64,000 nt of DNA, from NCBI GenBank assembly GCA_049840815.1, contig JASGJI010000012.1, positions 40,157 through 104,156 of the forward strand, read 5' to 3'. The notes under the pieces were generated by a model. That model had not been told where the DNA came from. It did not search any database and saw only the letters and a program-made list of their open reading frames with translations. The translations under genes were made by a program, and so were the position numbers. Below are positions 1-32,979 of the stretch, in pieces; the stretch's first letter is position 1, and each line of letters begins with the position of its first letter. Source of the DNA: Thermomicrobiales bacterium. GTDB lineage: Bacteria > Chloroflexota > Chloroflexia > Thermomicrobiales > UBA6265.

Positions 1-408
1 TATGCGCCGATCCTCGCCGAGATCGAGCGTCGGGATCAGAACGCGGATGCACTCTCAGGTGATCCTCTGGCCCCAGCACCTTCCCACCGGAACAACGACC
101 TGATGGCTCTCGCCGCCGATCTGAAGGCAGCGTGGCCCATCGAGCAGTTCTGCGCCGACCTCCTGGCGATGCGGCTGGAAGGGCGAGGGGCTCGTCTGAA
201 GGGCCGGTGCCCACTCCCCGGACACAACGACGATGATCCCTCCTTCACGGTTTACGTCAGCGACAACCGAACATGGTGCTTCGGTTGCTGGCGCGGCGGC
301 GATGTCATCGACCTGACCCGCCATTACTTCGGCCTGAGCACGTTTCGAGAAGCCGTCGAGAAACTGCAAGACGAGACACGGACCTTCTTCGGGGAGGTTC
401 GCCGATGA
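1..408 (+). CDS. CHC2 zinc-finger primase-like protein (5'-partial or starting at ATG 103)
   Basis: Frame 1 is open from the window edge. CPLPGHNDDDPSFTVY...CFGCWRGGDVIDL matches the DnaG/P4-type CHC2 zinc finger. The stop overlaps the next start (ATGA at 405-408). Confidence 0.65.
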   Translation, partial: YAPILAEIERRDQNADALSGDPLAPAPSHRNNDLMALAADLKAAWPIEQFCADLLAMRLEGRGARLKGRCPLPGHNDDDPSFTVYVSDNRTWCFGCWRGGDVIDLTRHYFGLSTFREAVEKLQDETRTFFGEVRR

Positions 409-2006
409 TCTCCATCTCCGCCGAACAGGAGGCCGCACTGGCCCACCTGCGAGAACGCGATCGGGCGCTGGAGAAAACGGCGCTCACCGCAAATGACATG
501 GACCCGGTTACGGTTCCCCCTGCTCCGCCCTTCCGGATTGACATCCTCCCCGACAGGATCGCCGACTATGTTCGCGCGCAGGCGGCAGCGATCGGCGTCC
601 CAGTCGAGATGATCGCGCTGCCGCTGCTGGCGAACATCGGTGCCCTGATGGGGAATCGAATCGCCATCCAGTTGAAGGCCGGATTCCGCCAATACGCCGC
701 CCTGTGGGTAGGCATGATCGCCCCTCCGGGAGCAGCAAAGACCCCTGCGCTGAACGCGGGCCGCGCGCCACTCGATGTCCTTCAGGGTGAGTGGTATGAC
801 ACCTATCGGACGCAGCGCGCGGAGTACGAGGCCGATCTTGAGCGATGGAGTGCTGCCCCGAAAGGCGAGCGGGGCACCAAGCCCACCCCGCCATCGATGC
901 GTCACGCCTACTCGACGGATGCCACCATCGAGGCCATCGCGGCGATGTTGCAGACAACCTATGGCCTGAGCCTCCAGCACGACGAGCTGGTGTCGTTCAT
1001 TCGCGCGATGGATCAGTACCGAAGCGGCAAGGGTGCCGACAAGCAAAAGTTCCTGTCCTTCTGGGCCGGAACGCCTGCCAAGGTAGATCGGCGCACTGGT
1101 GAACCGATCTATATCCGGCACCCGGTGGTCTCGGTGGTTGGCGGCATTCAGCCGGACCTGATCGCTGACCTCCGCGACCGGAACGGGAAGGAGGACGGCT
1201 TCATTGACCGCTTCCTCCTGATCCGTCCGGATGTCATGCGGCGGGGCTGGTCTGAAGACGAAGCCGATCCGGCGCTGCTTGATGCGGTCGTCACCGATCT
1301 CCGCACGATCGACAAGAATCTCATGCCGGAACCAGATGCAAAGCCAGATCAATTCGAGACGGTACGGCTCCATTCGGAGGCCCGCCATTTGTGGATCGAC
1401 TGGTACAACACTAACGAACGCCGGGTCGCCGGGGCTATGGGACTCCATGCCGGCATCCTCGCGAAGCTACCACTTCAGGTTGCCCGGATCGCCCTCATCT
1501 TGAACACCATCTGGAATATCGAAGACCCTGGTCGGATGGTGTCGGCGTCGATCATGGAAGCAGCGATCTGGCTCGGTGAGTTCTGCCTGACTCACTGGGA
1601 ACGCGCACTGCCTCTGATCGGCCAGAGTGTCCCGGCGGTTGGTGAAAACCTCCCAACCCGGATCATCGCCATCCTGCGGGACGAAGCGACCGCCGAGAAC
1701 GACGGCTGGGTGTCCCGGAGCGTCGTGTACCGCCGACTGCGGAACGTGTCGCCGGAGGACCTGACAACCGCCCTTGACGCTCTCTATGCCGACGGTCTCG
1801 CCGATACCCAGACGATCGAGACCAACCGGAAACCCCGTGAAGAATGGCGAGCAACTGATAAATGCGAATCGCATTTATCGCATTTATCGGTTGCCGGAGG
1901 AATAAATGCGAATAATGCGATTCGCATTTATTCCCAGCACTCCGAAATCGATGTCAATGGTGTCGGGTACGAACCCGAGATTCGCGATGGCGTGGGGGTG
2001 TGGTGA
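405..2006 (+). CDS. DUF3987-like (P4-alpha/D5-associated) helicase-like replication protein
   Basis: 533 aa, translationally coupled to the Zn-finger gene. It has a P-loop-like APPGAAKT and a VVGGIQPD motif that I recall as typical of DUF3987. The 3' end contains repeat module A. Confidence 0.55.
   Translation: MISISAEQEAALAHLRERDRALEKTALTANDMDPVTVPPAPPFRIDILPDRIADYVRAQAAAIGVPVEMIALPLLANIGALMGNRIAIQLKAGFRQYAALWVGMIAPPGAAKTPALNAGRAPLDVLQGEWYDTYRTQRAEYEADLERWSAAPKGERGTKPTPPSMRHAYSTDATIEAIAAMLQTTYGLSLQHDELVSFIRAMDQYRSGKGADKQKFLSFWAGTPAKVDRRTGEPIYIRHPVVSVVGGIQPDLIADLRDRNGKEDGFIDRFLLIRPDVMRRGWSEDEADPALLDAVVTDLRTIDKNLMPEPDAKPDQFETVRLHSEARHLWIDWYNTNERRVAGAMGLHAGILAKLPLQVARIALILNTIWNIEDPGRMVSASIMEAAIWLGEFCLTHWERALPLIGQSVPAVGENLPTRIIAILRDEATAENDGWVSRSVVYRRLRNVSPEDLTTALDALYADGLADTQTIETNRKPREEWRATDKCESHLSHLSVAGGINANNAIRIYSQHSEIDVNGVGYEPEIRDGVGVW
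1827..1931. repeat. AT-rich palindromic iteron module, copy A (inverted partner at 13506-13639)
   Basis: Contains ATAAATGCGAaTCGCATTTAT (10-bp arms), tandem CGCATTTAT, and the nested palindrome GGAATAAATGCGA...TCGCATTTATTCC. The central ~95 nt differ from the reverse complement of copy B at 4 positions. Confidence 0.9.
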
Positions 2007-2374
2007 TGAATCCTCACGACATCCTCGCCGAGGTCTACTCGGTCAGCGCCGCGCTCGAACTCGACGATGACCGGATCACCTGTCCAACGGTCTACCGTCT
2101 CCCGCCCGACCTGCGCAAGGAGATCGGCGAGCACAAGGCGGCGCTGCTCGCCCTACTGCACGAAGCCCGCATCGGCGAGACCGACCACGGATTCTGGCTG
2201 CCGCGCCGGTTTGTTCCTCCCGCTGATTGCGAGAACGAACGGACCTGCGCCAGGCACGGGCTGTGTCCAGCGGCACTCGCGGGTGAACCATGCGCCCGCT
2301 CACCGGGAAACACGTTGTACCCACCTGCGAACTCCAGCGCGAACAGCTCCAACACGAAGGACAAAAGACAATGA
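2000..2374 (+). CDS. hypothetical protein
   Basis: The ORF abuts and overlaps the previous stop (GTG 2000/2003 or ATG 2006). Its stop overlaps the next ATG (ATGA at 2371-2374). Confidence 0.5.
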   Translation: MVMNPHDILAEVYSVSAALELDDDRITCPTVYRLPPDLRKEIGEHKAALLALLHEARIGETDHGFWLPRRFVPPADCENERTCARHGLCPAALAGEPCARSPGNTLYPPANSSANSSNTKDKRQ

Positions 2375-2919
2375 CCACTCGGGTGACGATCGAAATCGAG
2401 ATTGACGACAACGCAGACCTTCCAAATGAGCCATGCGGCGTTCCCGAGGCGACGTTCCTCGAACCCGACTTCTTCTACCCGATGCGCGCGGCACTCGACC
2501 TAGCGAAGGCATGTGGTGTCCTGCCCATTCCTCGTACCTGGGGGCCGGTGATGTGGCCCGCCTGGGCGCATGCATGCAGGATGCAATCGCTGCCGGAAGT
2601 CGTCGTGGTCACAGGAAGGGACGGTCGCAAGTCGGTGGATGTCACGATCGGTCACCTTCCGAACTCGGATCGGGCGCAATGGGAGAAGGCGGCGAAGTCC
2701 GTGCTGCCGGGACCATGCCCATGGAGACAAGGTGACTGCTCGTCCAAGTGGACGGTAGCTGTTGCCGAGGACGGGGACGCCTTCGCGCTGGCGTCGAAGG
2801 TGATTGCGGCGGGCGGGGGTTGGCCATACAGAGGAATGTCGCTCCAATTCGATTGGGGGCGGGCCCGTCGTCCATCGTGGCGCGCGGATCCGACATATGG
2901 CGTTCGCTACGTGGGCTGA
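2371..2919 (+). CDS. hypothetical protein
   Basis: 182-aa ORF coupled to the upstream gene and followed by a 21-bp-stem hairpin. Confidence 0.55.
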   Translation: MTTRVTIEIEIDDNADLPNEPCGVPEATFLEPDFFYPMRAALDLAKACGVLPIPRTWGPVMWPAWAHACRMQSLPEVVVVTGRDGRKSVDVTIGHLPNSDRAQWEKAAKSVLPGPCPWRQGDCSSKWTVAVAEDGDAFALASKVIAAGGGWPYRGMSLQFDWGRARRPSWRADPTYGVRYVG

Positions 2920-2926
2920 AGCTACG

Positions 2927-2975
2927 AACACCGAGAACCCCAGCAGGCACACAGCCTGCTGGGGTTCTCGGTGTT
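2927..2975 (+). terminator. Perfect 21-bp stem hairpin (terminator-like, no U-tract)
   Basis: AACACCGAGAACCCCAGCAGG / CCTGCTGGGGTTCTCGGTGTT with a 7-nt loop, immediately after the stop at 2919. Confidence 0.6.
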
Positions 2976-3183
2976 ACCGCAGTAGCTCGCCGTGCCTCCA
3001 TCCTTTTGCGGCGCTACATACTTGACTCCGTCCAGTCCCGCCTGCCACGATGCGGCGCATCACCTCGGGCACGGCGCAACGACAACGAGCCTCTCAACGG
3101 TTGGTCGGCGTCGACCTGGGCGGACTCGCCGCTCCAGCCTGAGCCGCTGTGCAATCGATAGCTTTCGTGAGCGAGAAACCAGC

Positions 3184-4077
3184 ATGAGCGACAACTTCGC
3201 CTGGGCAAGAGACCTCTATCCCCGGAAACGGCAGCCAGAAATTGGAGAACAGTGGGCGTACCGAGTCAAGCGGACGCTGGGGGAACCTGCCCAACGCGTG
3301 GAGGTTGTGCAGTTCGGTCCCCCTTCGTCCAAGAACAAGATGCGAATCAGGTTTCTCGACGGCGATTTTGCCGGTCTTGACGAGTGGGTGCCGAAGACAA
3401 GGTTGATCCTGCCGTGGGAAGAGCATGATGCCTGGTGGCAGGATGAGCTCAATCTGAAGGCCGCATGGGACTTCGAGGAGGAGATCGACTTCGTAGAATG
3501 GCGTGCGGTCAGCAAAGTATTCTCCGTCTACGGTGAGGGGCGTGTATTTCGCGTCGGGTTCAATCGGAAGGAATATGGCCTACTTGAAGTAAGGGACGAG
3601 GAAGAAGCCACGAAGGCTCTCAACGATCTCGGATTGCCGATCGAATCGCTTCCCATGATCTTCAAGGATCGGCACGGAGTTCATCGTGGCCCCTATTCCG
3701 CCGCTGTCATAGTCGCCAAGCATCTTTGTCAGCAGGCATCCTCAGTCATCGTTGAGGGCGTATCCAAAGATCAGCGACGAGACGAGCTTCACGCGGTTCG
3801 CGGGTGGCATTACGGCAAGGAGTCTCGATACTATGCCAGTCCTGAGTCGATGACCGAGCTTCTCAAGGAGCAAATGCCCATCTATGACCTCGTCCGCTCC
3901 TGGTGCAGCAGAGAGGTGGTTGAAGAGTTCAACAGGATAGATGCCCTCGAAGCTGAAGTAGCTCGTCTGCGCGTGATCATCGAGGATCAGGCTGAACTCT
4001 GGGAGAGGAGTGGAGACAAGCGCCGGGCCAAGCGGCTCCGCAACGAGCTCAATCTGCCGAAAGACACGAGTGATTAG
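3184..4077 (+). CDS. hypothetical protein (orphan, first gene of lower-GC cargo island)
   Basis: 297-aa ORF with an ATG start and coding-like composition. It has a C-terminal coiled-coil-like charged tail. No motif recognised. Confidence 0.55.
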   Translation: MSDNFAWARDLYPRKRQPEIGEQWAYRVKRTLGEPAQRVEVVQFGPPSSKNKMRIRFLDGDFAGLDEWVPKTRLILPWEEHDAWWQDELNLKAAWDFEEEIDFVEWRAVSKVFSVYGEGRVFRVGFNRKEYGLLEVRDEEEATKALNDLGLPIESLPMIFKDRHGVHRGPYSAAVIVAKHLCQQASSVIVEGVSKDQRRDELHAVRGWHYGKESRYYASPESMTELLKEQMPIYDLVRSWCSREVVEEFNRIDALEAEVARLRVIIEDQAELWERSGDKRRAKRLRNELNLPKDTSD

Positions 4078-4161
4078 CTCCTACTGCCTCACCTTTGTTG
4101 TGAGATACTTCGGCATCGGGTTCCACTCGTCCAATCGAATTAGTGAGGCACGGGCCAAACC

Positions 4162-4929
4162 ATGTCTGCTTACGCAAATTACTGGCGCACCATTCCCACC
4201 CTTCAGGCGACGCGAGAACTCGGCCCAGCCGAGGATGGCGTCTCCCGAGCAAGAGTAGTGGATACTCCCGCTGGTGAGTTCTATGTCAAGCACGACGCCT
4301 GGTCCGCGGAAACCGGAACACAGATCGTGGCCAATGAGTTTCTCTCTGCGGCGATCGCCAGTTCGATGAACGTTCCGATCCCAATGTTTGCCGTCGTCGT
4401 GGTGGACGGGAAGCGATGCTTTGGATGTCGCAGTGTCAGGCGGTCTGCACCATTTGTCGATGCCGCACGTCTGAGGGGGTGCAGGAATTTTGAGAGCCTG
4501 TACTCGCTGTTGGTGTTCGATGTCTGGCTGGACAATCACGATCGCCACAACGGGAACGTCATCATTGGACAAGACGGCGGGCGCACCGTTTTTTGGGCTA
4601 TCGATCATAGCCATTGTCCTTTTCCGCCTAGGCGGCTACCCCATCACCTTCCGGCATTGCATGGCCCTGAAGGCGCAGGCTCCTGCATTCCCAGCTGGTA
4701 CGCGCGCGAAGTGACCAGCATCCCCCTGCTACAACGGGCAATTGACGCAGCCAATACACTCTCCGATGATGAGATAGCGGACATTGTTCCAGGCGTCCCT
4801 GGGCAGGACTGGTCCGAAAGTGGTATCGCGCAGATCGTTGATTTCCTCGTGCATCGCCGAATCAATCTTCGGAAAATGCTAGACACGGCACGGTTTTCGC
4901 TCTCCAACCTGGAAGGAGGATCCCTGTGA
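4162..4929 (+). CDS. HipA-like (HipA_C / PI3/4-kinase-fold) serine/threonine kinase
   Basis: FDVWLDNHDRHNGNVII matches the HipA catalytic loop (D-x-H-x-x-N). WAIDHSHC is an Mg-binding D-like motif. The N-lobe has a FYVKHD lysine. Confidence 0.65.
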   Translation: MSAYANYWRTIPTLQATRELGPAEDGVSRARVVDTPAGEFYVKHDAWSAETGTQIVANEFLSAAIASSMNVPIPMFAVVVVDGKRCFGCRSVRRSAPFVDAARLRGCRNFESLYSLLVFDVWLDNHDRHNGNVIIGQDGGRTVFWAIDHSHCPFPPRRLPHHLPALHGPEGAGSCIPSWYAREVTSIPLLQRAIDAANTLSDDEIADIVPGVPGQDWSESGIAQIVDFLVHRRINLRKMLDTARFSLSNLEGGSL

Positions 4930-5756
4930 AGTCTGCTCGGTACAGCCTAATCAGATATATCCCCGACCTGGCGCGCAACGAGCCGGTCAATATCGGAATC
5001 GCAGCGTGGACCGATCACGAACTGTTGATCAAGCTATCAAAGGATGGTCTAGATCGAGCGTTTCACAGTGCACCGGACCTTTCACCTGGTGCCTTCGAAG
5101 GGTTTGAAGATTACCTGTGTGACCGGATTTCTCGACACTGGAAGACAAATCTCTCGACTCATTTCGAGGAGGCAGAGAGTCTTTTGGCGTCTTGCATTGA
5201 TCGCCCTGCCACCGTGACTCCTTCACTGTTCGTTGGAATCGATGAGAGCCGCCCCGAGCGTGAAGCGCTTGAGTTGGTGTGCGCGGAACTGGATGCTCGG
5301 CTGATCCGCCCCCCTCGAAGGTACTCTGGTCGTCGCTCTGAAGGGCTGGTCGAGTCGATGAGACGATCACTCTCGCCATTCCTGGCAGCTCACAAGGTCC
5401 ATATGGACCACGAGTTCAAGGAGACACGATCTGGCCTCCCCCAGACTGTTGACTTCTTCGTCAACTCGGGGTCCGATATCGCCCTCGACGTATTGGCCGT
5501 TCGATCAAACGCAGGGGCCGAGAGCATACTGTTGAGGTCGAGCGCGCAAGCCGCGAAGGTCATCGACATTCGCGGTTCCCAAGGAAAAACGCAAGTTTCC
5601 GAATTCCTTGTATACGCCCCAGTGGACCAGCGAGCAAACCTGGGAGACTACATCGACAAGGTGAGACAAAGCCTCTCAATAAGTGATTGCCGAGTCCTCA
5701 CCAGCCGAGACGAGGTCTTCGAAATCGTCCGCGATCAGGTGGGCGGACTCGTATAG
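4926..5756 (+). CDS. DUF3037-like protein
   Basis: The GTG start overlaps the kinase stop (GTGA at 4926-4929). The N-terminus YSLIRYIPDLARNEPVNIGIAAW resembles the DUF3037 signature as I recall it. Confidence 0.5.
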   Translation: MKSARYSLIRYIPDLARNEPVNIGIAAWTDHELLIKLSKDGLDRAFHSAPDLSPGAFEGFEDYLCDRISRHWKTNLSTHFEEAESLLASCIDRPATVTPSLFVGIDESRPEREALELVCAELDARLIRPPRRYSGRRSEGLVESMRRSLSPFLAAHKVHMDHEFKETRSGLPQTVDFFVNSGSDIALDVLAVRSNAGAESILLRSSAQAAKVIDIRGSQGKTQVSEFLVYAPVDQRANLGDYIDKVRQSLSISDCRVLTSRDEVFEIVRDQVGGLV

Positions 5757-6043
5757 GTCGTCATATCTAGGCGATCGTAAGGCAGGGAGTGTGCCCCTCC
5801 CGGTCCACCACACGCTCGCGCGCACCGGGCAGGAGCCCCACGCCAACCACGGCGACACACAGGCAAAGGCTGTGGCATACTCGGTCGAACGGGTCAGCCC
5901 ACAATCGAATCCACCATCCGGAGCCTGCCATGCGCCGTCTCGCCGACCTGATCCCCTACCCTCGCAGTCTCGCGCTCCTGGGCAACGCCGCCAGTGCAGT
6001 CAGCTCGGAGAAATGATGGACGCCCCTCCCAAATGCTGTTAGG

Positions 6044-6793
6044 GTGTGTTCCTCAGGGACGCTGGAACAGATTGACAAGCCGATTGGCAGACCTAACAAT
6101 AGCTACCGACATCCGTTCGTCACCCTCTTTGAAGCTGTAGCGAGGCACCAATCCGTGGAACTGCCAGTATCCGTCCTAGTGGTAGAGCTTCGGAGATTCG
6201 CGCCCAAGGTCCTCGACACGCGGGGTATTATCGCCCAGCAACTTGTTGATGCCTACCTTTCGGTAACGGTCGAAAGTGGTCCGGGTTCGCTCCTCGAAAC
6301 CATCGGCTTCAACAATGAGAGCGGTACGATCCGTGCGGCGGTAAGCGGGTACACCGCGACATATCAGGAGGCAACCCCGCCCGACTCGCTCGCTTTCGAG
6401 GTCGCTGCGCAATCGTTCTTGAAGCGCGTCGAGAAGATTGCCGATCCCGTGGAATACGAACGACTAGGCATCCTCGTGGGATTCCGAAGCTCTGTTCCCC
6501 GCTCAATAGTTGGGCGATTTCTCAACTCGCCGATTAGTCAGCATGCCGATCGTTGGCAAGTGACGGATGGACATATCCAGTTCATGCGAAACGACGACAA
6601 CCGTGGCGTCACCGTTGATTTCCGATTTCTCACGAGCACGAATCTCAATCCTGGCTCAAATCTGGCAGATATAGAAATCCAGGTTGATCAGTGGCACCTG
6701 CGGCCCGAAAAGCTGCACGCTCGCAACCCGAAGGTGAATCAGGCGGTTCAAGAAGCGCGACGGTTGGTTGCTGACTTGCTCAAGGAGGAGTAA
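6044..6793 (+). CDS. hypothetical protein (first gene of PIN operon)
   Basis: 249-aa ORF. The next ORF starts 3 nt after its stop. No motif confidently recognised. Confidence 0.5.
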   Translation: MCSSGTLEQIDKPIGRPNNSYRHPFVTLFEAVARHQSVELPVSVLVVELRRFAPKVLDTRGIIAQQLVDAYLSVTVESGPGSLLETIGFNNESGTIRAAVSGYTATYQEATPPDSLAFEVAAQSFLKRVEKIADPVEYERLGILVGFRSSVPRSIVGRFLNSPISQHADRWQVTDGHIQFMRNDDNRGVTVDFRFLTSTNLNPGSNLADIEIQVDQWHLRPEKLHARNPKVNQAVQEARRLVADLLKEE

Positions 6794-6795
6794 GC

Positions 6796-7206
6796 ATGGC
6801 ACTACAACATACACACGCCTATCCAGAAGACGAATCGAGATTGCTCTCGGGCACAACCGTGTTGCCCGATCCGACTAGAACAACTACGGGCACTCAGGAT
6901 CCTGCCGGAGGGCACTCTACGTTTGACAAGTCTTCGACGCAACTTCAGCAAGGTGGCACCTCAACGATCCGTCTCGGCAATACGTCGCCAACGGTAGCCT
7001 CTCCGATGTTCACGCCATCTGGACGATCCGTATACCTGAGACGCCGCCTTGAAGAGCAACGTCTCTACGCAACTCTAAAGTCTGAAGAGGGCAAGGATCC
7101 GATTCAAGAAATTGACCGAGTCGCTGAGGAACTTTTCGGGGATGTGGTTGGCTACGAGCTACTCGCGGAAGTCCTGGCCGGCGGTGATCTCGATCATGGC
7201 TGGTAA
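6796..7206 (+). CDS. hypothetical protein (possible antitoxin-like partner of PIN)
   Basis: 136 aa with a low-complexity N-terminal half and a helical C-terminal half. Its 3' end overlaps the PIN gene start by 11 nt. Confidence 0.45.
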   Translation: MALQHTHAYPEDESRLLSGTTVLPDPTRTTTGTQDPAGGHSTFDKSSTQLQQGGTSTIRLGNTSPTVASPMFTPSGRSVYLRRRLEEQRLYATLKSEEGKDPIQEIDRVAEELFGDVVGYELLAEVLAGGDLDHGW

Positions 7207-7807
7207 GGTCGTGGATCTAAGCAGCCAGCTTGACAGTATTCCCGAGTTCTGCGTTGTTGACACGAACGTCCTGATCTCGCTATTCGTCCCGGCCACATCT
7301 CCGACCAATGCGAGGCAACGCAGTCAATCCCAAGCCCTTCGGCAACATCTGGAACAGGAAGATAAAGGCGGGTTTGTCACTCCGACTACCGTTGCGGAAA
7401 TCGCACACCTGTTTGTCAAGCTGGAGTTCACGCGCGAACTGAAGAACAATCTTGTCAAGCACGAGGCGGACTTAAGAAATCGCTTCCCAGGCAAGGCCAG
7501 GTTCGACTGGCTAGATTTGTGCAAGGTCTATCCAAGGCCCTTCGAAGCTGCTGCAAAATCGCTTCAGACCGCCTGCAGCCAAATACGTACCAGCTTCGTC
7601 TTTCTTGAACCGTTTGACCTTAGCCCGAATGCACCGGGTACACACCAATTCACGGACCTTGCCGCCGCCATAAAGCGGTACCGCATGGACTCCAATGACG
7701 CATCAATTTTGATTGAAGCTCGGCGCGCAGGAATTTCGGCAATCGTTTCGCATGATGGTGATTTGCGCAGGGCCAGCAAAGACTTTGATGTCTATACGTG
7801 GCTCTAG
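7196..7807 (+). CDS. PIN-domain nuclease (VapC-like, enlarged)
   Basis: The acidic quartet is in PIN order: VVDTNVL, TVAEIAH, DSNDASI, SHDGDL. At 203 aa it is larger than a canonical VapC. Confidence 0.7.
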   Translation: MAGKVVDLSSQLDSIPEFCVVDTNVLISLFVPATSPTNARQRSQSQALRQHLEQEDKGGFVTPTTVAEIAHLFVKLEFTRELKNNLVKHEADLRNRFPGKARFDWLDLCKVYPRPFEAAAKSLQTACSQIRTSFVFLEPFDLSPNAPGTHQFTDLAAAIKRYRMDSNDASILIEARRAGISAIVSHDGDLRRASKDFDVYTWL

Positions 7808-7819
7808 TCCATAGGTCGT

Positions 7820-7851
7820 GAAAGCGTGGCAGGAGATGCTGCCACGCTTTC
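7820..7851. terminator. Bidirectional hairpin between convergent gene blocks
   Basis: GAAAGCGTGGCAG-gagat-GCTGCCACGCTTTC (about a 13-bp stem), located where the + and - gene arrays converge. Confidence 0.6.
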
Positions 7852-7885
7852 CGTTCACCTTACAGCCCGGTCCCTCGTGGGGAAG

Positions 7886-7999
7886 TTAGGTGGCCTCCCG
7901 ATCGATGACCGTCTCCGGTTCATACTCCATCTCGGCCAGGTATCCCCAGAAGAGTTGCAGCTTCGGGTTCCAGCGATCAGGACACGGCCCCTCACGCAT
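7886..7999 (-). CDS. small hypothetical protein (37 aa)
   Basis: The ATG overlaps the upstream stop (TGATG). The product is MREGPCPDRWNPKLQLFWGYLAEMEYEPETVIDREAT. It is below the ORF-track size cut-off. Confidence 0.35.
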   Translation of the reverse strand: MREGPCPDRWNPKLQLFWGYLAEMEYEPETVIDREAT

Positions 8000-8307
8000 C
8001 ACATACAGCCCGCTCTCGGCACTTCGCACCTGACGGCGAACACGAGATCGTAGCCGGTGTCGCTTGCATCCTCGTACGTGGCGTCCAGCACATCAAAGCC
8101 AACAACCCGCATCACAGGCGCGTCATCGTCTATCAGCTCGACTCTCGCAATGGTCGGATTGCCCGTCCAGCGGTCAAACAGGTCGCCGGAATCGATCGCG
8201 AATTCCACGGGCTGGGCCGCGGTCACGATGATCTGGGTCTCAGCCAGATCGTTGTATTCGGTGAATCCGGTCGGACAGGCGACCAGGACGTGATTGAGAT
8301 TCGTCAT
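7999..8307 (-). CDS. hypothetical protein (102 aa)
   Basis: Internal ATG at 8307 preceded by GGAGACC. The longer 219-aa track ORF overlaps the excisionase-like gene in another frame. Confidence 0.5.
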   Translation of the reverse strand: MTNLNHVLVACPTGFTEYNDLAETQIIVTAAQPVEFAIDSGDLFDRWTGNPTIARVELIDDDAPVMRVVGFDVLDATYEDASDTGYDLVFAVRCEVPRAGCM

Positions 8308-8360
8308 GACTTGGTCTCCTTGGAATCGTCGCCAGATTGACTCTTGCGGTGGATGAAATC

Positions 8361-8405
8361 GCCAACACCACGACCGGTGATGTTCACACCGGTCGTGGTG
8401 TTGGC
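8361..8405 (-). terminator. Perfect 19-bp stem hairpin with the upstream gene's stop codon in its loop
   Basis: GCCAACACCACGACCGGTG / CACCGGTCGTGGTGTTGGC with a 7-nt loop containing the stop at 8384-8386. Confidence 0.5.
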
Positions 8406-8563
8406 GACCAGCGACCGCGCAGGAAGTCCTCGAACGCCTCGTCAGGAATGGTGTAGGAACCGCCGATCTTGTAGCCCGGCAGCTCGCCGCGCTGGATTCC
8501 GGCATAGATCGTGTGCTTGTCCAGCCCGGTAACACGGATGAGGTCGGAGACTTTCTTCGGCAC
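8384..8563 (-). CDS. Excisionase-family helix-turn-helix DNA-binding protein (59 aa)
   Basis: GTG start with a GGAGGAA RBS. VSDLIRVTGLDKHTIYAGIQRGELPGYKIGGSYTIPDEAFEDFL fits the excisionase/MerR-like HTH pattern. It is missing from the ORF track because it is under 60 aa. Confidence 0.65.
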   Translation of the reverse strand: MPKKVSDLIRVTGLDKHTIYAGIQRGELPGYKIGGSYTIPDEAFEDFLRGRWSPTPRPV

Positions 8564-8710
8564 GACGGTTCCTCCTGACGGAAAAGCGGTGAGATGGTTC
8601 GGCAGCGAAAAGGTTGTGGGCGGATTGTACCAGAACAGATGTCCTCATCAACATGCATGCGCTGATACGCTGTCGTCCGCCCACACCCACCACGCGCGCC
8701 AGCAAGCCCG

Positions 8711-9019
8711 CTACGACGTAGAAGCCTTCTCCCTGGCGGGCATCTCCTTCGCGTACCTCGCGATCCGCTCAGCTATCACATGGCACATCGCATGATCGAT
8801 CGCCATCAATTCAATGAAGTACTGGACGTGCTCGGCAGGAATGCGCTTCGTGATGCGGGTGCCATCTGCCAGGTCGGCGATGAGTAGCATCGAGCCGTCC
8901 GCTTCGTGGTGAGTCTTCCAGTCGGTGAAGTGCGTTCCCGGCTGATCAGGATCGAATCGGATGAACATCAGTCGGGTGCCGTCGGGGATGGCAGCGTGCA
9001 GGCGGTCGCGCTTCTTCAT
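8711..9019 (-). CDS. hypothetical protein
   Basis: 102-aa ORF with an AAAGGA RBS 8 nt upstream of the ATG. Confidence 0.5.
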   Translation of the reverse strand: MKKRDRLHAAIPDGTRLMFIRFDPDQPGTHFTDWKTHHEADGSMLLIADLADGTRITKRIPAEHVQYFIELMAIDHAMCHVIAERIARYAKEMPAREKASTS

Positions 9020-9187
9020 GGTCGATGTCCTTTCGGAGAATGCGGGTACGGCGGGAGTGCTGCTGTGGATCGCCAGGAAGGCCGTCAGGCGGCGTTGTCC
9101 TCGCGCATGGAGGATCTATCGTTTATGTCACCTTGGACCTGCGTAGCCCCTCCCTGGCGGCGGTCATCGTGACCCTCTCCATCGAGT

Positions 9188-9218
9188 GGGCGCGTCAGCG
9201 GAAGAAGGCGACGCGCCC
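9188..9218 (-). terminator. Hairpin after Zn-ribbon gene
   Basis: GGGCGCGTC / GACGCGCCC (9-bp stem, 13-nt loop), 11 nt downstream of the stop at 9229. Confidence 0.45.
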
Positions 9219-9228
9219 ATGTCGCAGG

Positions 9229-9396
9229 TCAGGCGTGCAGGCGTCTCCCGCATTCCTCGCAGAAGAACCAGCGGGGGCCGATGGCGGTGCCACAGACTGG
9301 ACAGACCACGTCTTCACCGGCGAGCGGGTCGATGGCGTCCGCGTCCATGTGGCCGGGCTGCGGTCGGCGGAAGATGCGACGAAGGAAGGTCAGCAT
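9229..9396 (-). CDS. small zinc-ribbon protein
   Basis: CPVCG...CEECG double CxxC. The ATG at 9396 is preferred (GGAG 9 nt upstream). The track start at 9438 lies inside the big hairpin. Confidence 0.5.
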   Translation of the reverse strand: MLTFLRRIFRRPQPGHMDADAIDPLAGEDVVCPVCGTAIGPRWFFCEECGRRLHA

Positions 9397-9419
9397 GGGG
9401 GAGTTCTCCGGTGCCGATG

Positions 9420-9487
9420 ATGGACTCAAAAGGCTCAAAAGCCGGTTCGCTATAACAATCGGGAGGCTTTGAGCCTTTTGAGTCCAT
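9420..9487. repeat. Large intergenic inverted repeat (20-bp perfect arms, ~28-nt spacer)
   Basis: ATGGACTCAAAAGGCTCAAA ... TTTGAGCCTTTTGAGTCCAT. The arms are A/T-richer than their surroundings. Confidence 0.85.
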
Positions 9488-9505
9488 GAGCCTATGGTTC
9501 AGGGA

Positions 9506-9852
9506 TCAATCCGCGTGTGCCGAGAAGTTGGAGCCGGGCACCGTCTCGATACCGTTGACGCGGCTCCGTGCTTCGCGGAAGGCCTTCGCAGCCAGCCTGG
9601 TGGCTTCGTGGTACCCCAGCTGGTGCGATGCCTCGCGCTCGACCTCGCGGAAGGCGCGTTCGGCTTCGTTGCGAATGGCGCGGGCTTCTCCCTGGCCTTC
9701 CGGTCGAAGGGGTCAGTCGCCGCATACGCGGCGCGGGTAGCCAGCCATTCGGCCTGCGTCTCGACCAGCTGGCGGTACAGACCGGCGCGGTCATCGGTTG
9801 GGACGGTCGGGCTGACGATGAGCGTGAGATGTTGGCGGGCGACGGTTTCCAT
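9506..9852 (-). pseudogene. hypothetical gene split by a frameshift at a G4/C4 run (9709-9712)
   Basis: The start at ATG 9852 has an AGGAGG RBS (METVARQHLTL...AAYAATD). A protein-like continuation, PLRPEGQGEARAIRNEAERAFREVEREASHQLGYHEATRLAAKAFREARSRVNGIE...HAD, lies in the -1 frame and has no start codon of its own. Confidence 0.55.
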
Positions 9853-9927
9853 GACGATGGCCTCCTGAGCGGCTACACGGGCCGTTGTGGCGTGTTTCTG
9901 GTCACGATGGGTTGGGAGTCGTTCGAA

Positions 9928-9957
9928 CCTGTGAGCGCGTACGTACGCGCTCGCAGG
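9928..9957. repeat. 30-bp near-perfect palindrome after gene 9965-10303
   Basis: CCTGTGAGCGCGTAC|GTACGCGCTCGCAGG, 14 of 15 positions complementary. Confidence 0.8.
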
Positions 9958-9964
9958 AATTCGG

Positions 9965-10303
9965 TCAGGCCGCGCGACGGTGGGCGGTATGCCCGATGTA
10001 GGTGGGTCGGTGTGGCAGGCGAGCGGGGAGCGGAACGAACCCGTCTCGACGCTCCTGATCGCGGTAGGCATCTTCCTCGTCCAGCCACGCATCCATCGGG
10101 TAGTTGTCCAGCGCGTCGAGGTCAGCCGGGACAACGCTGGCCGATGTGAGGATCTTGCCCAGCGTCTCCGCCAGGGCCTCGGCCTCGCTCGCGAGGCTGT
10201 TGCAGCATGCTTCGTCCACGCTACTGGGAAGGGTTCCACCAACGGTGCGGGCGAGCGCGGCAAAGTGGGTCAGCCGATCGATGAGCGTTTCCGTGTCCGT
10301 CAT
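9965..10303 (-). CDS. hypothetical protein
   Basis: 112-aa ORF with a strong GAAGGAG RBS upstream of the ATG. Confidence 0.55.
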   Translation of the reverse strand: MTDTETLIDRLTHFAALARTVGGTLPSSVDEACCNSLASEAEALAETLGKILTSASVVPADLDALDNYPMDAWLDEEDAYRDQERRDGFVPLPARLPHRPTYIGHTAHRRAA

Positions 10304-10320
10304 GGGGTGCTCCTTCGGGG

Positions 10321-10349
10321 CGGGGAGTGTGCGAGCTGCACACTCCCCG
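10321..10349 (-). terminator. 12-bp stem hairpin between cistrons
   Basis: CGGGGAGTGTGC-gagct-GCACACTCCCCG, just downstream of the stop at 10360. Confidence 0.5.
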
Positions 10350-10359
10350 ACCGGCTGAA

Positions 10360-10917
10360 CTAGCCGAGATCGATACGGCGGGTCTCGGCGATGACGACGG
10401 TGGTGCCGTTGCCTGCCGTCGCGGCGATGGTTGCCCGGCGTTCAGCTCGGGCGGTGTCCCGACGTTCACGGGCGGCGTTAGCCACCGGGTTGTTCGGCTG
10501 CTTGCGCGGCGCGACCGGCGTGGGGTCCTGCTGCGGGTTCTTTCTCGCCTTCCGCTGAGCCTTCCAGGCGTCCGGCTCCCACGCCTTGCCGTGCTCGGCC
10601 TCCCAGTCGGAAATGCTCTCCGTCTGGGCGATGTCGAAGGCGCTGCCCAGGTTGAAGCGCGGGTGCAGGTCCATCTCTCCGGCGAGCATGCCGGCGGCGT
10701 GGTCAATGCTCGGTGCGTTGGCGATGTCGTCAGCGAGTCCATCGGCACTGCGGACCTTCGGCACAAAGATCTTGATCGCCTTTTCACCCTTCCTGATCTT
10801 CCGGCCACGCATGGCCCACTCGCTCGCGGGCAGCACGACGGTCGCGGTCGGGAACTGGGATGCGATCAATCGGGCATTGGTAACGCTGTAGCGTTCGGTG
10901 AAGAGAGGCATGTCCAC
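10360..10917 (-). CDS. ArdC-N-like (DUF1738-like) ssDNA-binding protein, no protease domain
   Basis: ASEWAMRGRKIRKGEKAIKIFVP resembles the ArdC N-terminal motif (W..G..V+KGEK). The C-terminal half is basic and low-complexity. GTG start with an AGGAAGGA RBS. Confidence 0.45.
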   Translation of the reverse strand: MDMPLFTERYSVTNARLIASQFPTATVVLPASEWAMRGRKIRKGEKAIKIFVPKVRSADGLADDIANAPSIDHAAGMLAGEMDLHPRFNLGSAFDIAQTESISDWEAEHGKAWEPDAWKAQRKARKNPQQDPTPVAPRKQPNNPVANAARERRDTARAERRATIAATAGNGTTVVIAETRRIDLG

Positions 10918-10974
10918 GGTCGATTCCTTCCTGCGGGAGCGGGGAGCAGCGGTGAACCGCTCCCGGCGGGCGAG

Positions 10975-11331
10975 CTAGGCGGCTTGGCTGTGGGGCTGGG
11001 TCGCCGCCGCGAGCTTGATCCGGGAGGCCTCGTAGTACCGCCAGACGCGGCAAGCGGCGCGGTTCAGGAACTCCGTAGAGGCGGAGCAATACTGGTGAAG
11101 CAGGAAGGCGGTGCCGTCCTTCCGGTATCCCCATGCCTCGACCTTCTGATCCCTCACGATGAGGAACCCGATACGCTCGCCGGTGGCCGGAATGCGGATG
11201 TCCTGCTGTACCGATGCGACGGGGTGACATGCGACGTTCTGGGTATCCACGATTGCCCTCCCTGGGCGTTGCCGGTCCGGCTGCAACCGGGTCCGGCGGC
11301 TGATGTAGGTGGAAGCCTTGCCGGTTTCCAT
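10975..11331 (-). CDS. hypothetical protein
   Basis: 118-aa ORF, first gene of the leftward array, divergent from the XRE gene. Confidence 0.45.
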   Translation of the reverse strand: METGKASTYISRRTRLQPDRQRPGRAIVDTQNVACHPVASVQQDIRIPATGERIGFLIVRDQKVEAWGYRKDGTAFLLHQYCSASTEFLNRAACRVWRYYEASRIKLAAATQPHSQAA

Positions 11332-11417
11332 TGGACTAATAGTAATCCATTACGTATCAAATAGCAATAGGGTAGTGGTAGAATAGTGGTAGTAATCGCC
11401 TATAACCCGGGAGAACT
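11332..11417. promoter_or_regulatory. AT-rich divergent promoter/operator region
   Basis: Locally AT-rich. Direct repeats TAGTGGTAG sit at 11373 and 11384 (11-bp spacing), with a TAGAAT -10-like hexamer 34 nt upstream of the XRE ATG. Confidence 0.5.
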
Positions 11418-11627
11418 ATGAAGACGATCGAGCAGATGAGGAAGTCCGCGGGCATGACGCAGATGCAGTTAGCCGTAGCGGTCGGTGTGTCGCTCGCCAC
11501 GGTGTACAACTGGGAAGCCCGCAAGACTGAGCCGAAAGCATCACAACTCCGGAAGGTTGCGACTCTCTTCGGGGTATCGATGGACGATATCGACTTCGAG
11601 CCAAGAGACAAAGTAGCCGCCGGGTGA
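11418..11627 (+). CDS. XRE-family helix-turn-helix transcriptional regulator
   Basis: MTQMQLAVAVGVSLATVYNWEARKTEP is a classic Cro/CI-type HTH. 69 aa. Confidence 0.85.
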   Translation: MKTIEQMRKSAGMTQMQLAVAVGVSLATVYNWEARKTEPKASQLRKVATLFGVSMDDIDFEPRDKVAAG

Positions 11628-11697
11628 TTGATCACTCGGCGGCTGGCAAGGCTCCCACCGTTTGCAGTCGGTGGAGGACATCGCCAGTGTAGCGGAT

Positions 11698-11776
11698 TCG
11701 TCCTTTCGTCCTTTCGTCCCGTTCCCTAGTGTGAAGCGGTTTGGGACGAATATCGGGACGAATCCGAACGGGACGA
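11698..11776. repeat. TCGTCC iteron array (3 direct with 8-bp period + 3 inverted)
   Basis: TCGTCC at 11698, 11706 and 11714. GGACGA at 11744, 11756 and 11771. Confidence 0.8.
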
Positions 11777-11851
11777 GAGGCAGGCGGGGCAACCCCATCC
11801 CTGTGCAGTTGAGACGCCAAGGACCCGGAGATCAGGCGTGGTACATACACC

Positions 11852-12040
11852 ATGCAGCCTATTGTCGTCCTGGTGCCCATCGTGATCGCCCTAGGCTTCT
11901 GGGGCTGGATGTTCAGCGATATGGAGAAGAACGCCGAGATCACACCGGAGCAACGGCAGTGGTGGCGGTTCGCCTTCCTGTTCGGCAACGTTGTCACCGC
12001 AGCGTTCTACTTCGGCTACGTGTACCTGCGGCGATCGTAA
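11852..12040 (+). CDS. small two-TM membrane protein (PLD-N-terminal-like)
   Basis: 62 aa with two hydrophobic segments and a W/F-rich pattern that resembles small PLDc_N-type proteins. The assignment is tentative. Confidence 0.5.
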   Translation: MQPIVVLVPIVIALGFWGWMFSDMEKNAEITPEQRQWWRFAFLFGNVVTAAFYFGYVYLRRS

Positions 12041-12047
12041 CCACCAC

Positions 12048-12167
12048 TCCGCCAAAGCGGTCCGCCAAATTCCCTATATATGGCGGAGTGGCGGACTGGC
12101 GGACCGCTCCCACCTGTCCGCCAAATCGGAGTACGGGGATTGCTGGCGGAGCGCTCTGGCTGGCGGA
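12048..12167. repeat. TCCGCCA/TGGCGGA iteron cluster (8 copies) around a TATATA core
   Basis: TCCGCCA at 12048, 12061 and 12117. TGGCGGA at 12081, 12089, 12097 (8-bp period), 12144 and 12161. The same heptamer recurs in repeat copy B (13524, 13568). Confidence 0.85.
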
Positions 12168-12259
12168 CTGGTATTCACGTGTTGCGTGACTATGAGGCTC
12201 GCCCATCCCGCTGGGCGAGCGGGACATACCGCGCGTTGCGGGGCCAGCAGGTACGCAGG

Positions 12260-12448
12260 GAGATGGGTGAGCAGGTGGACAGCACACCATCACGCGGGTG
12301 AGCGGGTAGGGGGTGAGCGGGTAGGCAGGTGGGGAGCGGGAGCGTCTGTCTGATTGTTGGTTGGTAGGTGAAGCGGTAGCGTGTGTTCTGTTTGGTGTTG
12401 TGGTAGGGGATTGTATTATTGGTTGGGATTGTGTTGTGTGATTGGGTG
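12260..12448. other. G-rich then G+T-rich, C-depleted tract (no ORF)
   Basis: Tandem GTGAGCGGGTAGG at 12298 and 12313, with several GGG runs. The tract 12351-12448 contains only 3 C in 98 nt. Confidence 0.8.
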
Positions 12449-12631
12449 CCCTACCCACCTGTCGATATGAATTACCCGAAAATCCTCCGAACCCGCCCAC
12501 AAGATCACGCTGCTTTCACGAATTATGTCTACCTGCTGCCCTGATCGGTCGTGTGCCGGTTGCGTAGTTTCCGGCCAGCAGGTGGTGATGGTGCACGGCA
12601 GGAGGTGTAGCAGCAAAGCAGCGTGACAACC

Positions 12632-12853
12632 TTATTCTGGATGCAGGGCAGGCAGGTGTTCCGGCGCTCGGGTGCCGACAATCGGAACGTCAGTAGCGCC
12701 GGTGCGGTCGGCATTGGTGAGGTATCGGGGCTTCCGTATTCTGGTTGAGGGGTGAACAGGTTGCGAAACGTAAGTGACAGCCTGTCGCCCTCTCGCGTAG
12801 CTCCGAAACCACTCGGCAGGCATTGTATACACAGCCGATACCCCCGATCGCAT
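12632..12853 (-). CDS. possible small basic protein (73 aa)
   Basis: The start overlaps the upstream stop as TAATG. The composition is only weakly coding-like. Confidence 0.25.
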   Translation of the reverse strand: MRSGVSAVYTMPAEWFRSYARGRQAVTYVSQPVHPSTRIRKPRYLTNADRTGATDVPIVGTRAPEHLPALHPE

Positions 12854-13077
12854 TATCCGGATTCCGCGATCAATTCCACCTGGCGACCTGGCAGCGGTAT
12901 AGGGCGCACGTCGCTGATGTCCCAGTCGCCGGACTCGACATGCTGAATGAGTTGGTCACCGTCAGGTTCGGCACGAAGTTGGTCAAGGAGTTTTGTGTGT
13001 TCCTTGAGTGCTGTTCGCGAGCTGTAGCCCACCGCCTTGGCGAGCTGGCCAGCGGTGGATCGGTCGTTCTTGGTCAC
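12853..13077 (-). CDS. hypothetical protein with HTH-like segment
   Basis: 74 aa. STAGQLAKAVGYSSRTALKEH looks like a helix-turn-helix. The gene overlaps the upstream gene's stop (13074-13077). Confidence 0.5.
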   Translation of the reverse strand: MTKNDRSTAGQLAKAVGYSSRTALKEHTKLLDQLRAEPDGDQLIQHVESGDWDISDVRPIPLPGRQVELIAESG

Positions 13078-13415
13078 GGTGGAGCCGGAACCGGCTCCAC
13101 CGTGACCGCGCCTCCTGCCTCCGCTTTGGCGATGAACTCATCGCGGATGATCTGCGGGGTGTTGTTGGAGGCGAGCGCATAGAGGGCTTTAGCAGGCAAA
13201 TTCGAAACGGTTTCGAATTTGCCTGAGAAATGCTCGGCAACATTCATGAAGTTGTTCGCCGTCTTCCAGCTCCACCCGAACTCCGCCTCCAGCCACGCGC
13301 CGAACTGCCCATGACCGAGCAAGCCCTTCACCCGGATCAGCTCGCGCCCCATCTCAATGATCTGCTCGCCGGTCTTGCGTTCGAGGAAGTGGAGGCGGTC
13401 GGTTGCCGCCTCCAC
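13074..13415 (-). CDS. DUF3102-like protein
   Basis: GRELIRVKGLLGHGQFGAWLEAEFGWSWKTANNFMNVA matches the DUF3102 signature (HG.F..WL...F..S.RTA..FM) common in plasmids and phages. Confidence 0.65.
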   Translation of the reverse strand: MEAATDRLHFLERKTGEQIIEMGRELIRVKGLLGHGQFGAWLEAEFGWSWKTANNFMNVAEHFSGKFETVSNLPAKALYALASNNTPQIIRDEFIAKAEAGGAVTVEPVPAPP

Positions 13416-13505
13416 GATGGTTCGCAGAGATCCTTAGGGGAGGCATGGAGAAAACACCAGAAAGGTCGTACGCCTCCAGAGGCCAGAGCTTTCTGGTGTT
13501 TCTGG

Positions 13506-13639
13506 CATATTCGCATTTGTCCCTCCGCCAACCGATAAATGCGAATCGCATTATTCGCATTTATTCCTCCGCCAACCGATAAATGCGATAAATGCGAATC
13601 GCATTTATCAGTTGCCCGCCATTCCTCACGAGGCTTCCG
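13506..13639. repeat. AT-rich palindromic iteron module, copy B (inverted relative to copy A, with one extra unit)
   Basis: The reverse complement of 13535-13630 matches 1836-1931 with 4 mismatches. There is an additional CCTCCGCCAACCGATAAATGCGA-like unit at 13506-13545. Confidence 0.9.
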
Positions 13640-13681
13640 AGTGATTATGGAGACGCGCACGATCTCGTTCACAGTACAGGC

Positions 13682-13981
13682 TCACTCAGACGCCAGCTTC
13701 GACGGTCCGTACTTCGCCAGCATGCGGCGGGTCACTTCATCCCGTCGCCGGATTGCCCGCTCCCGCGTGGCGGCGTCCATCACCGGCGCGATGACCGGTC
13801 GATCGCTGGCACCGTCCGCCTGTTTCGTCTCTGCCTCGGTCTTGGGATGCATCTTCCGCCAGGCCGCACCACAGCGACGGCTGCAGGTGAGATGGGTGCG
13901 CCAGCGTGTCGATGACTCATAGCGGCTCTTCGTGAAGGTCGCTCCGCAGATAGGGCAGCGGCGTTCCTGGTCGTCGGGCAT
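13682..13981 (-). CDS. zinc-ribbon protein
   Basis: MPDDQERRCPICG...CSRRCG. The ATG at 13981 is preferred over the longer track ORF. Confidence 0.5.
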   Translation of the reverse strand: MPDDQERRCPICGATFTKSRYESSTRWRTHLTCSRRCGAAWRKMHPKTEAETKQADGASDRPVIAPVMDAATRERAIRRRDEVTRRMLAKYGPSKLASE

Positions 13982-14141
13982 GTTTCCCCCTTGTCGTGGA
14001 ATTGAACATTCGAACTTTCTTTTGCGATTTCCGGGTGAACAGATGGCGAGCATCGCGCACCAGAAACACTATTATGTCTACTTGATCCGATACAATGGAG
14101 GTACCCGGATTCGCGGGGATCACCGTTGAAGAGGTCGCCCT

Positions 14142-31722: not shown

Positions 31723-31740
31723 ACATACATATACTTACTG

Positions 31741-32927: not shown

Positions 32928-32979
32928 TGCCACCGGGGAGGGTGCGATCCTCCCCGCCACCCCGAACGGAGCGTCCACG

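Follow-up and report, generated by a model that had tools for sequence, protein, structure and literature searches.

In the Staphylococcus aureus pathogenicity islands (SaPI) and the SCCmec cassette, the C-terminal winged helix of the proteins Rep and Cch binds iterons located directly downstream of rep, in sets of opposite orientation (PMC9371898). In phage-inducible chromosomal islands (PICI) of Gram-negative hosts the origin is found directly 3′ of rep, and a pri-rep-ori segment drives plasmid replication (PMC6092414). Phage SPP1 has oriL inside its initiator gene and a similar repeat copy approximately 13 kb away in non-coding DNA, both bound by one protein, and oriR has been proposed to act as a fork barrier (PMC6316719). 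We analysed a 64-kb stretch of a Thermomicrobiales (Chloroflexota) metagenome-assembled genome (assembly GCA_049840815.1, contig JASGJI010000012.1, positions 40,157 to 104,156; the whole stretch is called the window and is numbered from its first nucleotide), the left part of which belongs to an integrated mobile element with a DUF3987 helicase gene. Two copies of a palindromic repeat module, A and B, lie there in inverted orientation, A within the 3′ end of the helicase gene. Our reading, to which we give a probability of about 0.62, is that A is the replication origin of a PICI-like element and that B is a duplicated helicase 3′ end, likely still bound by the helicase.

Three further designs are relevant to this locus. 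The satellite phage P4 encodes a D5/SF3-type primase-helicase, alpha, whose C-terminal domain binds DNA; its targets are short iterons, grouped in two clusters (ori and crr) that lie several kilobases apart, and crr is required in cis. The lambda origin lies inside gene O, where initiator-bound iterons occupy coding sequence for a flexible region. In iteron plasmids (P1 incA/incC, F incB/incC, R6K alpha/beta/gamma) extra clusters of initiator sites serve copy control, handcuffing or long-range activation, and looping between distant iterons of the R6K type is established. An origin inside the initiator gene is already a known design; the inverted second copy is the unusual extra of the locus described here.

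A repeat search of the window returned inverted arms at 1827-1931 and 13535-13639, each of 105 nt, 94% complementary and 11,603 nt apart, and blastn gave 94.3% identity over 105 nt (E=9e-42). The two inverted ~105-bp copies 11.6 kb apart that a preliminary description of this DNA had reported are thus borne out. Between 1827-1931 and the reverse complement of 13535-13639, 99/105 nt are identical, with mismatches at 1832, 1835, 1841, 1850, 1868 and 1894 and perfect runs of 25 and 37 nt; four of the six mismatches fall in the last 95 nt, in agreement with the four differences counted earlier within the central ~95 nt. The 10-nt half-site ATAAATGCGA, with at most 1 mismatch, occurs 11 times in the 64 kb, and all 11 occurrences are within A and B, in keeping with the palindromic half-sites and tandem units first described. 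Chance expectation is ~1.3, and 11 was reached in none of 100 shuffles. The 8-mer cores AAATGCGA and ATAAATGC and the spacer CGGTTGSCGGAGG had no occurrence outside the two modules in the window. An exact 21-mer scan for the module palindrome gave no match in viral contigs and, in JGI metagenome contigs, one match, an unrelated single palindrome in the A+T-rich contig L085. The AT-richness of both copies also held, with a G+C of 38-47% across the modules (60-nt windows) vs. 61% for the helicase gene. Because of their symmetry, the single strands of both modules fold strongly (z=-8.7 for A and -8.2 for B); an Rfam scan of 1-22 kb gave tRNAs only.

Copy A corresponds to codons 475-509 of the 533-aa DUF3987 open reading frame (ORF), which places it, as proposed earlier, in the coding 3′ end of this gene. 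The features of this part of the window are as follows.

1..408, plus strand: 3′ part of a CHC2 zinc-ribbon (DnaG-type) gene (Pfam Zn_ribbon_DnaG, E=2.6e-12)
405..2006, plus strand: DUF3987 helicase/initiator gene, 533 aa (Pfam DUF3987, E=2.9e-64)
1650..1853, plus strand: predicted C-terminal winged-helix domain, codons 416-483, ending KPREEWR (modelled secondary structure and alignment)
1827..1931, plus strand: module A, proposed origin; the iteron array, preceded by 31 nt that code for the winged helix (repeats, half-sites, fold z=-8.7)
1858..1887: left arm of module A, half-sites 1858-1867 (+), 1869-1878 (-) and 1878-1887 (-) (half-site scan)
1888..1901: 14-nt G+C-rich spacer of module A, CGGTTGCCGGAGGA
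1902..1931: right arm of module A, half-sites 1902-1911 (+), 1912-1920 (+, degenerate, ATAATGCGA) and 1922-1931 (-) (half-site scan)
1932..2006, plus strand: distal tail codons and C-terminal tip (…DGVGVW); residues 495-533 have a predicted local distance difference test score (pLDDT) <50
2006..2374, plus strand: small gene with a TubC_N-like docking domain (domain search)

The half-sites of A run -> <- <-, 14-nt spacer, -> -> <-, a palindrome of 30+14+30 nt in which half-site pairs form perfect 21-bp palindromes (ATAAATGCGA-N-TCGCATTTAT) and in which 1869-1878 and 1878-1887 of the left arm stand in tandem at 9-nt spacing. The spacer reads CGGTTGGCGGAGGA/G in copy B and is present there twice. 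A promoter scan found no sigma-70-like promoter in either module. The helicase stop codon (TGA, 2004-2006) shares a base with the start codon of the next gene (ATG at 2006), and a gene with a TubC_N-like domain comes after the helicase gene in the related loci L087 and L088 too. Upstream, the CHC2 zinc-ribbon frame is open from base 1, the gene being truncated by the window start, and its stop overlaps the helicase start; its product shares 53% identity with the Zn_ribbon_DnaG proteins (198 aa) of the related loci L001, L002 and L004, over their C-terminal half.

An AlphaFold2 model of the helicase, made with 67 homologues, reached a pLDDT of 87.7 and a predicted TM-score (pTM) of 0.80. At the C-terminus the model has helices at residues 416-425, 438-445 and 450-462 and strands at 466-471 and 478-483, that is, three helices and a two-strand wing, followed by a tail that is disordered from residue 495 to 533 (pLDDT <50). 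KPREEWR, which closes the winged helix, is conserved in the homologue alignment, and the first half-site begins 4 nt past the last modelled winged-helix codon (residue 483). Foldseek matches in the PDB were to MCM2-7, SCCmec Cch (5dgk) and ORC/Cdc6 (E=6.5e-6 to 6.8e-4, with low TM-scores of ~0.3) and, among viral models, to phage DUF3987 helicases fused to primase-polymerases; a sequence search against solved structures gave nothing significant. The prediction from the model is of an MCM/Cch-like AAA+ hexameric helicase with a C-terminal winged helix. The helicase sequence is 100% identical to an NCBI protein of a Thermomicrobiales metagenome-assembled genome, and its best match among GTDB representatives shows 42% identity. 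No DnaB-type helicase or loader domain was detected among the scanned ORFs of 1-21 kb.

To compare the position of A with that of repeats in other elements, 80 DUF3987 loci from other phyla were surveyed for their densest exact 9-mer cluster on both strands, and the count was restricted to the 22 loci whose top cluster has at least 4 copies. In half of these (11/22) the densest cluster falls in the interval from -450 to +350 nt around the helicase stop, where ~1.3 would be expected from position (binomial P≈1e-8). At the position matching copy A, some 20 distant DUF3987 loci have iterons specific to their own lineage, for instance GACAAAACC in Ruegeria, TAGTGCCAA in Geminicoccus, ACGAGGAAA in an actinobacterial metagenome-assembled genome (MAG) and CCTATAACC in Amniculibacterium. 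Such clusters typically consist of tandem copies at 9-nt spacing and an opposed set, and the window shows the same 9-nt-tandem signature in TCGCATTTATCGCATTTAT. The cluster is inside the helicase ORF in loci L008, L010, L036, L049, L053 and L058, the ORFs of which extend past the winged helix. A second iteron cluster is missing within ~10 kb in 21/22 relatives with a recognisable cluster; the sole relative that has one is L008, a Thermomicrobiales MAG, with a mini-cluster 1.5 kb from its tail cluster. In the fused primase-helicase ORF of L008 (806 aa) the iteron TTCATATCTTCAT is found at 9909-9940, in the primase-helicase linker, and at 11379-11437, in the C-terminal tail, and both sites are coding, for SSYLH(F/V)F.

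The complete plasmid pOSC7112.05 (NC_019732.1, locus L095; 7,645 bp) has the DUF3987 gene as its sole named gene, and the 3′ portion of this ORF contains a single GTCCACA cluster, of at least 12 iterons that face both ways. This plasmid is an indirect natural indication that a DUF3987 gene and its iterons form a replicon. A second repeat family, GGTTACAGA, is present at 48-645 of the same plasmid in at least 6 copies of both orientations; it extends partly into the first annotated ORF and could serve in partition or control.

We then asked how the tail region is constrained, using an alignment of six sister elements whose helicases are 57-60% identical and have tails of similar length. Results showed that ~75 nt are conserved at the homologous position of the tail without codon periodicity. 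Invariant codon positions 1/2/3 are 16/25, 13/26 and 13/25 in this zone, 11/15, 12/15 and 5/15 at the winged-helix end, and 9/19, 10/18 and 0/19 in the distal tail (Fisher tests, P=1e-4 and 4e-3), the winged-helix end and the distal tail showing the usual pattern of protein-coding conservation. At the homologous place the sister tails have a G+C dip and short repeats of their own, CCCAATGGGA and GGATTWTCCC. The acidic/hydrophobic C-terminal tips are kept (…DDWEVIV and …DNEVVF in relatives, …DGVGVW here), and so is the stop/start overlap of the helicase with the next gene. Since both are conserved, translation runs through the proposed origin, and the tip must stay translated because the helicase stop is coupled to the start of the next gene. 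The alignment thus suggests that the origin is genuinely dual-coded, a DNA element held within the codons of a disordered tail.

On these grounds copy A is, in all likelihood, the replication origin of the integrated mobile element. The winged helix, encoded by the ~200 nt just upstream, would recognise the ATAAATGCGA half-sites, and the DUF3987 helicase would double as initiator. We infer that the two opposed three-site arrays, once bound, load two hexamers head to head, that the hexamers melt the A+T-rich iteron DNA, and that replication fires after excision of the element. The origin would sit in the disordered-tail codons, between the winged helix and the short conserved C-terminal tip.

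The SaPI/PICI rep-ori module is matched in the gene order of the relatives (integrase, AlpA/HTH_17, primase-like gene, helicase; PMC9371898, PMC6092414), in the predicted winged-helix helicase, and in element-specific, opposed iteron sets directly after the winged-helix coding sequence. The layout of EcCICFT073, with CTGTCTACC iterons right after the rep stop, was confirmed. Its Pri-Rep was considered as a DUF3987 protein and rejected, the domains being D5_N, DUF5906 and Pox_D5; this comparison therefore concerns layout and not family membership. Unlike in these islands, the helicase here is of the DUF3987 family (vs. D5_N/DUF5906 in EcCICFT073), the iterons are 10-nt half-sites in perfect palindromes with no A+T-rich centre between the sets, the origin is inside the ORF and not after its stop, a second inverted copy is present, and the host belongs to the Chloroflexota. 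The SPP1 pair oriL/oriR is similar in that copy A is within the initiator gene and copy B kilobases away in intergenic DNA. However, gp38 binds the origin but relies on a loader and a DnaB-type helicase as separate proteins, where a single DUF3987 helicase is found here, SPP1 is a lytic phage, and relative orientation and repeat type differ.

With P4 ori/crr the locus shares two separated clusters of one iteron (A and B, 11.6 kb) in a satellite-type integrative element. The protein here is matched in Pfam by DUF3987 only, with an MCM/Cch-like predicted fold, and not by D5_N/SF3; no cis requirement is indicated, and neither P4 cluster is a copy of the 3′ end of the alpha gene. Like the lambda origin, A consists of iterons embedded in the initiator's own coding sequence, yet O is not a helicase and the lambda origin is a single one, with direct repeats and an adjacent A+T-rich region. 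Iteron plasmids have an extra cluster of initiator sites outside the origin too, but their Rep proteins are of the RepA/pi type, the host helicase is loaded separately, and copy control is not indicated here.

The features around module B are as follows.

13074..13415, minus strand: DUF3102 gene, downstream of module B and first of a leftward gene string to ~8 kb
13337..13672, minus strand: 111-aa ORF to which module B gives rise, probably no gene (fails the third-position G+C filter that marks coding ORFs here)
13451..13501, minus strand: hairpin with a 13-bp stem (AGAAACACCAGAAAG … CTTTCTGGTGTTT), separating the DUF3102 gene from module B (z=-4.0, in part terminator-like)
13508..13639, minus strand: module B, a duplicate of A in inverted orientation, extended by a third, partial unit of 44 nt (repeats, fold z=-8.2)
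13599-13608 (-), 13588-13597 (+), 13579-13588 (+), 13555-13564 (-), 13546-13554 (degenerate), 13535-13544 (+) and 13511-13520 (-, 1 mismatch): half-sites of module B
13682..14053, minus strand: Zn-ribbon ORF, 123 aa, ending 42 nt before module B

The one extra unit that the preliminary description had given to copy B is the third partial 44-nt unit, which contains ACAAATGCGA and reaches 13508; the description of B as intergenic, with an ORF for the same peptide, likewise agrees with ORF 13337-13672. The peptide of this ORF had no match and no annotation in a set of 5.8 billion proteins, in a search insensitive enough to miss the window's own helicase too. The Zn-ribbon ORF and ORF 13337-13672 are in one frame, parted by a single TGA and 9 nt, which is probably a coincidence, read-through or a recently split gene being the alternatives. 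For the DUF3102 protein no close homologue was found; DUF3102 homologues in S. thermophilus phages are encoded directly 3′ of a cro-like repressor gene.

Copy B holds 31 nt that in A encode RKPREEWRATD, and because of these it appears to be derived from a helicase 3′ end; judged by its sequence, B is a duplicate of that end. A helicase pseudogene beside B (tblastn, aa 420-509, E=9e-17) was considered and rejected, as true similarity starts only at RKPREEW. None of the six A/B differences touches the 58 nt of half-sites (P=0.007), and in the helicase reading frame 5/6 affect third codon positions. Divergence is higher in the flank (4/31) than across the repeats (2/74; P=0.06), a pattern that fits a not-very-recent duplication with the half-sites retained, and five perfect half-sites and both spacers are intact in B. 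Because every half-site is kept, B probably still binds the helicase, and we hold it to be a functional binding site with odds slightly better than even. Bound by the DUF3987 helicase, it would serve as a second origin or as an accessory site, by pairing with A or by fork arrest; its role could thus be that of second origin, accessory/pairing site or fork barrier, or it could have none.

The last of these options, in which A alone works and B is a functionless relic left by recombination with, or decay of, a second related element or by segmental duplication of the helicase 3′ end, is the most serious competitor and still an unlikely one. It would account for the abrupt start of similarity within the winged-helix codons (RKPREEW) with no helicase remnant alongside, for the more diverged flank, for a third unit that is decaying (ACAAATGCGA…ATATGCC), and for the rarity of second clusters in relatives; the cargo between A and B, moreover, is mosaic (55 to 67% G+C). 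A neutral relic, however, should have taken hits in the 58 nt of half-sites, and the five perfect half-sites and their spacers in B have escaped all six substitutions. At the other extreme, A and B may be a working pair, the helicase at B bridging to A (copy-number looping or handcuffing) or arresting forks from A in a switch from theta to concatemer replication, as has been proposed for SPP1 oriR, with arms that might flip the 11.6-kb cargo; we consider this doubtful. If true, the paired modules would be a two-site origin system in a PICI-like Chloroflexota island, with an origin dual-coded in the initiator tail. A little more doubtful is an obligatory two-part origin of the P4 ori/crr type, with both clusters needed in cis and the helicase looping between them. 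Two clusters with identical half-sites, intact in both modules, lie 11.6 kb apart, looping has its R6K precedent, and L008 has a second mini-cluster of its own iteron. Yet this version is unsupported because the second cluster is missing in 21/22 relatives within ~10 kb, the 7.6-kb plasmid has one GTCCACA cluster, and the 31 nt of helicase coding sequence in B resemble a by-product of duplication and not a designed partner site. The bipartite, helicase-bound origin first suggested for this locus is therefore retained in part: the sites are of the iteron type, and the winged helix, the relatives' iterons, the small plasmid and the DNA-level constraint mark A as the probable origin in an initiator gene, but the two-part arrangement gives way to B as a duplicate of the helicase 3′ end.

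Other explanations leave replication aside. The modules could be operator/promoter elements through which a dimeric regulator, or the helicase as a repressor, controls the rightward gene at 2006 and the leftward gene at 13415. The perfect palindromes ATAAATGCGA-N-TCGCATTTAT, the same relative orientation of both modules to their downstream gene, and the DUF3102 gene after B, given where its phage homologues stand, would suit such a role. But the promoter scan was negative for both modules, and the gene after A, translationally coupled to the helicase here and in relatives, needs no promoter for that reason; a hairpin separates B from the DUF3102 start, no repressor-type helix-turn-helix (HTH) gene was seen among the 20 larger ORFs of 1-21 kb, and the 9-nt tandem spacing with opposed sets matches the general iteron pattern after DUF3987 genes, all of which makes an operator improbable. 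More improbable again is a programmed invertible or recombining 11.6-kb segment bounded by the modules, the other possibility raised in the preliminary description. Inverted 105-nt arms of 94% identity, with perfect runs of 25 and 37 nt, make occasional homologous inversion physically possible, but, unlike Hin/Gin systems and shufflons, the locus showed no recombinase domain (invertase, integrase or transposase) among the scanned ORFs of 2-14 kb, and the arms are built of iterons that follow DUF3987 genes generally. We regard a dispersed genomic repeat (REP/MITE-like) unrelated to the element as the least credible explanation; the strong hairpin potential (z about -8) would fit it, but the remaining 62 kb of the window contain no copy, viral and JGI metagenome contigs gave no related matches, and one copy lies exactly where relatives keep their own iterons.

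Several observations weigh against A as origin and B as a bound duplicate. The centre of each module is a G+C-rich 14-nt spacer, unlike the A+T-rich melting region between SaPI/PICI iteron sets, the A+T-rich DNA here being that of the iterons, and perfect 21-bp palindromes are the classic shape of a dimeric repressor operator too. In the close relatives L087 and, in part, L088 the tail lacks a clear repeat. Next to the helicase, a catalytic primase domain (TOPRIM or archaeo-eukaryotic primase) was not detected, only the CHC2 zinc-ribbon protein upstream. The intact half-sites of B could be explained by recent duplication, or by gene conversion among copies, and not by selection, and B may be dispensable, as most relatives do without a second cluster. 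Finally, the ends, integrase and excision genes of the element are outside the window or unplaced.

If our reading of A and B is correct, the SaPI/PICI rule that an initiator helicase has its own iterons directly behind it would hold for the DUF3987 family and the Chloroflexota as well, and iterons would be readable across phyla directly after, or inside, the 3′ end of the DUF3987 gene. Origins and the determinants of their specificity would become simple to predict in uncharacterised islands, satellites and small plasmids, which number in the thousands. A candidate minimal replicon, made up of the zinc-finger and helicase genes and ~75 bp, would be available for a phylum with few genetic tools. 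One stretch serving as origin and as coding sequence for a disordered tail would be a clean case of overlapping constraints, and the duplicated copy a natural test of whether extra initiator sites modulate replication.

The left 14-21 kb of the window belong to the mobile element, and right of 22 kb is ordinary chromosome (RuvB, QueA, DnaG, UvrD, SecA). Relatives with helicases 42-60% identical are islands of 9-11 kb with integrase, HTH_17 (AlpA-like), Zn_ribbon_DnaG, DUF3987 and small genes; one of them, L087, has a terminase, and some have defence cargo. HTH_17/AlpA-like, CHC2 and DUF3987 are the replication module of the relatives, and only the latter two fall in the window; the zinc-finger and helicase genes are the only genes common to the window and the fetched relative loci. 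By analogy, this layout is that of phage-inducible chromosomal islands and related satellites, and one of the 'primase' markers by which PICMI satellites are detected is DUF3987 (PMC10803314). A search of the whole 64-kb window for an att-like duplicate of the tRNA region gave none.

The cargo of the element is mosaic and includes a HipA-like kinase with DUF3037, a PIN protein, an ArdC-like protein and the DUF3102 protein, although PADLOC and NCBIfam scans of the cargo ORFs were nearly empty. At 4162-5756 a HipA_2-like kinase gene, with weak PADLOC candidate-system matches (PDC-M03A), is followed by an overlapping ORF with a weak DUF3037 match; together with the PIN-domain gene further on (7112-7807), the kinase resembles toxin or defence cargo. 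Perfect long hairpins are present in the cargo at 2927-2975, 8359-8407 and 9420-9487, with stems of 22, 21 and 20 bp and loops of 5, 7 and 28 nt, respectively. The first of these is exactly at the junction of the conserved small genes and low-G+C cargo, and ORF 7999-8658 may not be a gene because the second lies inside it.

Between module B and a tRNA-His/Leu/Thr cluster at 21.2-21.9 kb there is an ORF of 2,287 aa (14142-21005, plus strand). Its third-position G+C of 0.81 is a strong coding signature, and it had no significant Pfam, PADLOC or NCBIfam match, only a sub-threshold match to the Tcp10_C repeat. A terminator-like hairpin, GGCCAGTCACATCGACTGGCC followed by TTTT, is located at 21155-21185, between this ORF and tRNA-His. 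A second, unrelated integrated element occupies 30394-41636 and ends beside tRNA-Met (41562-41636). It encodes a tyrosine integrase (30394-31722, minus strand) and a DUF927 helicase-like protein (37348-39330, minus strand), and the 12-mer GTTTTGGTGTCA occurs twice at each of its ends (30437, 30458, 41468 and 41480), where it may represent arm-type sites of the integrase.

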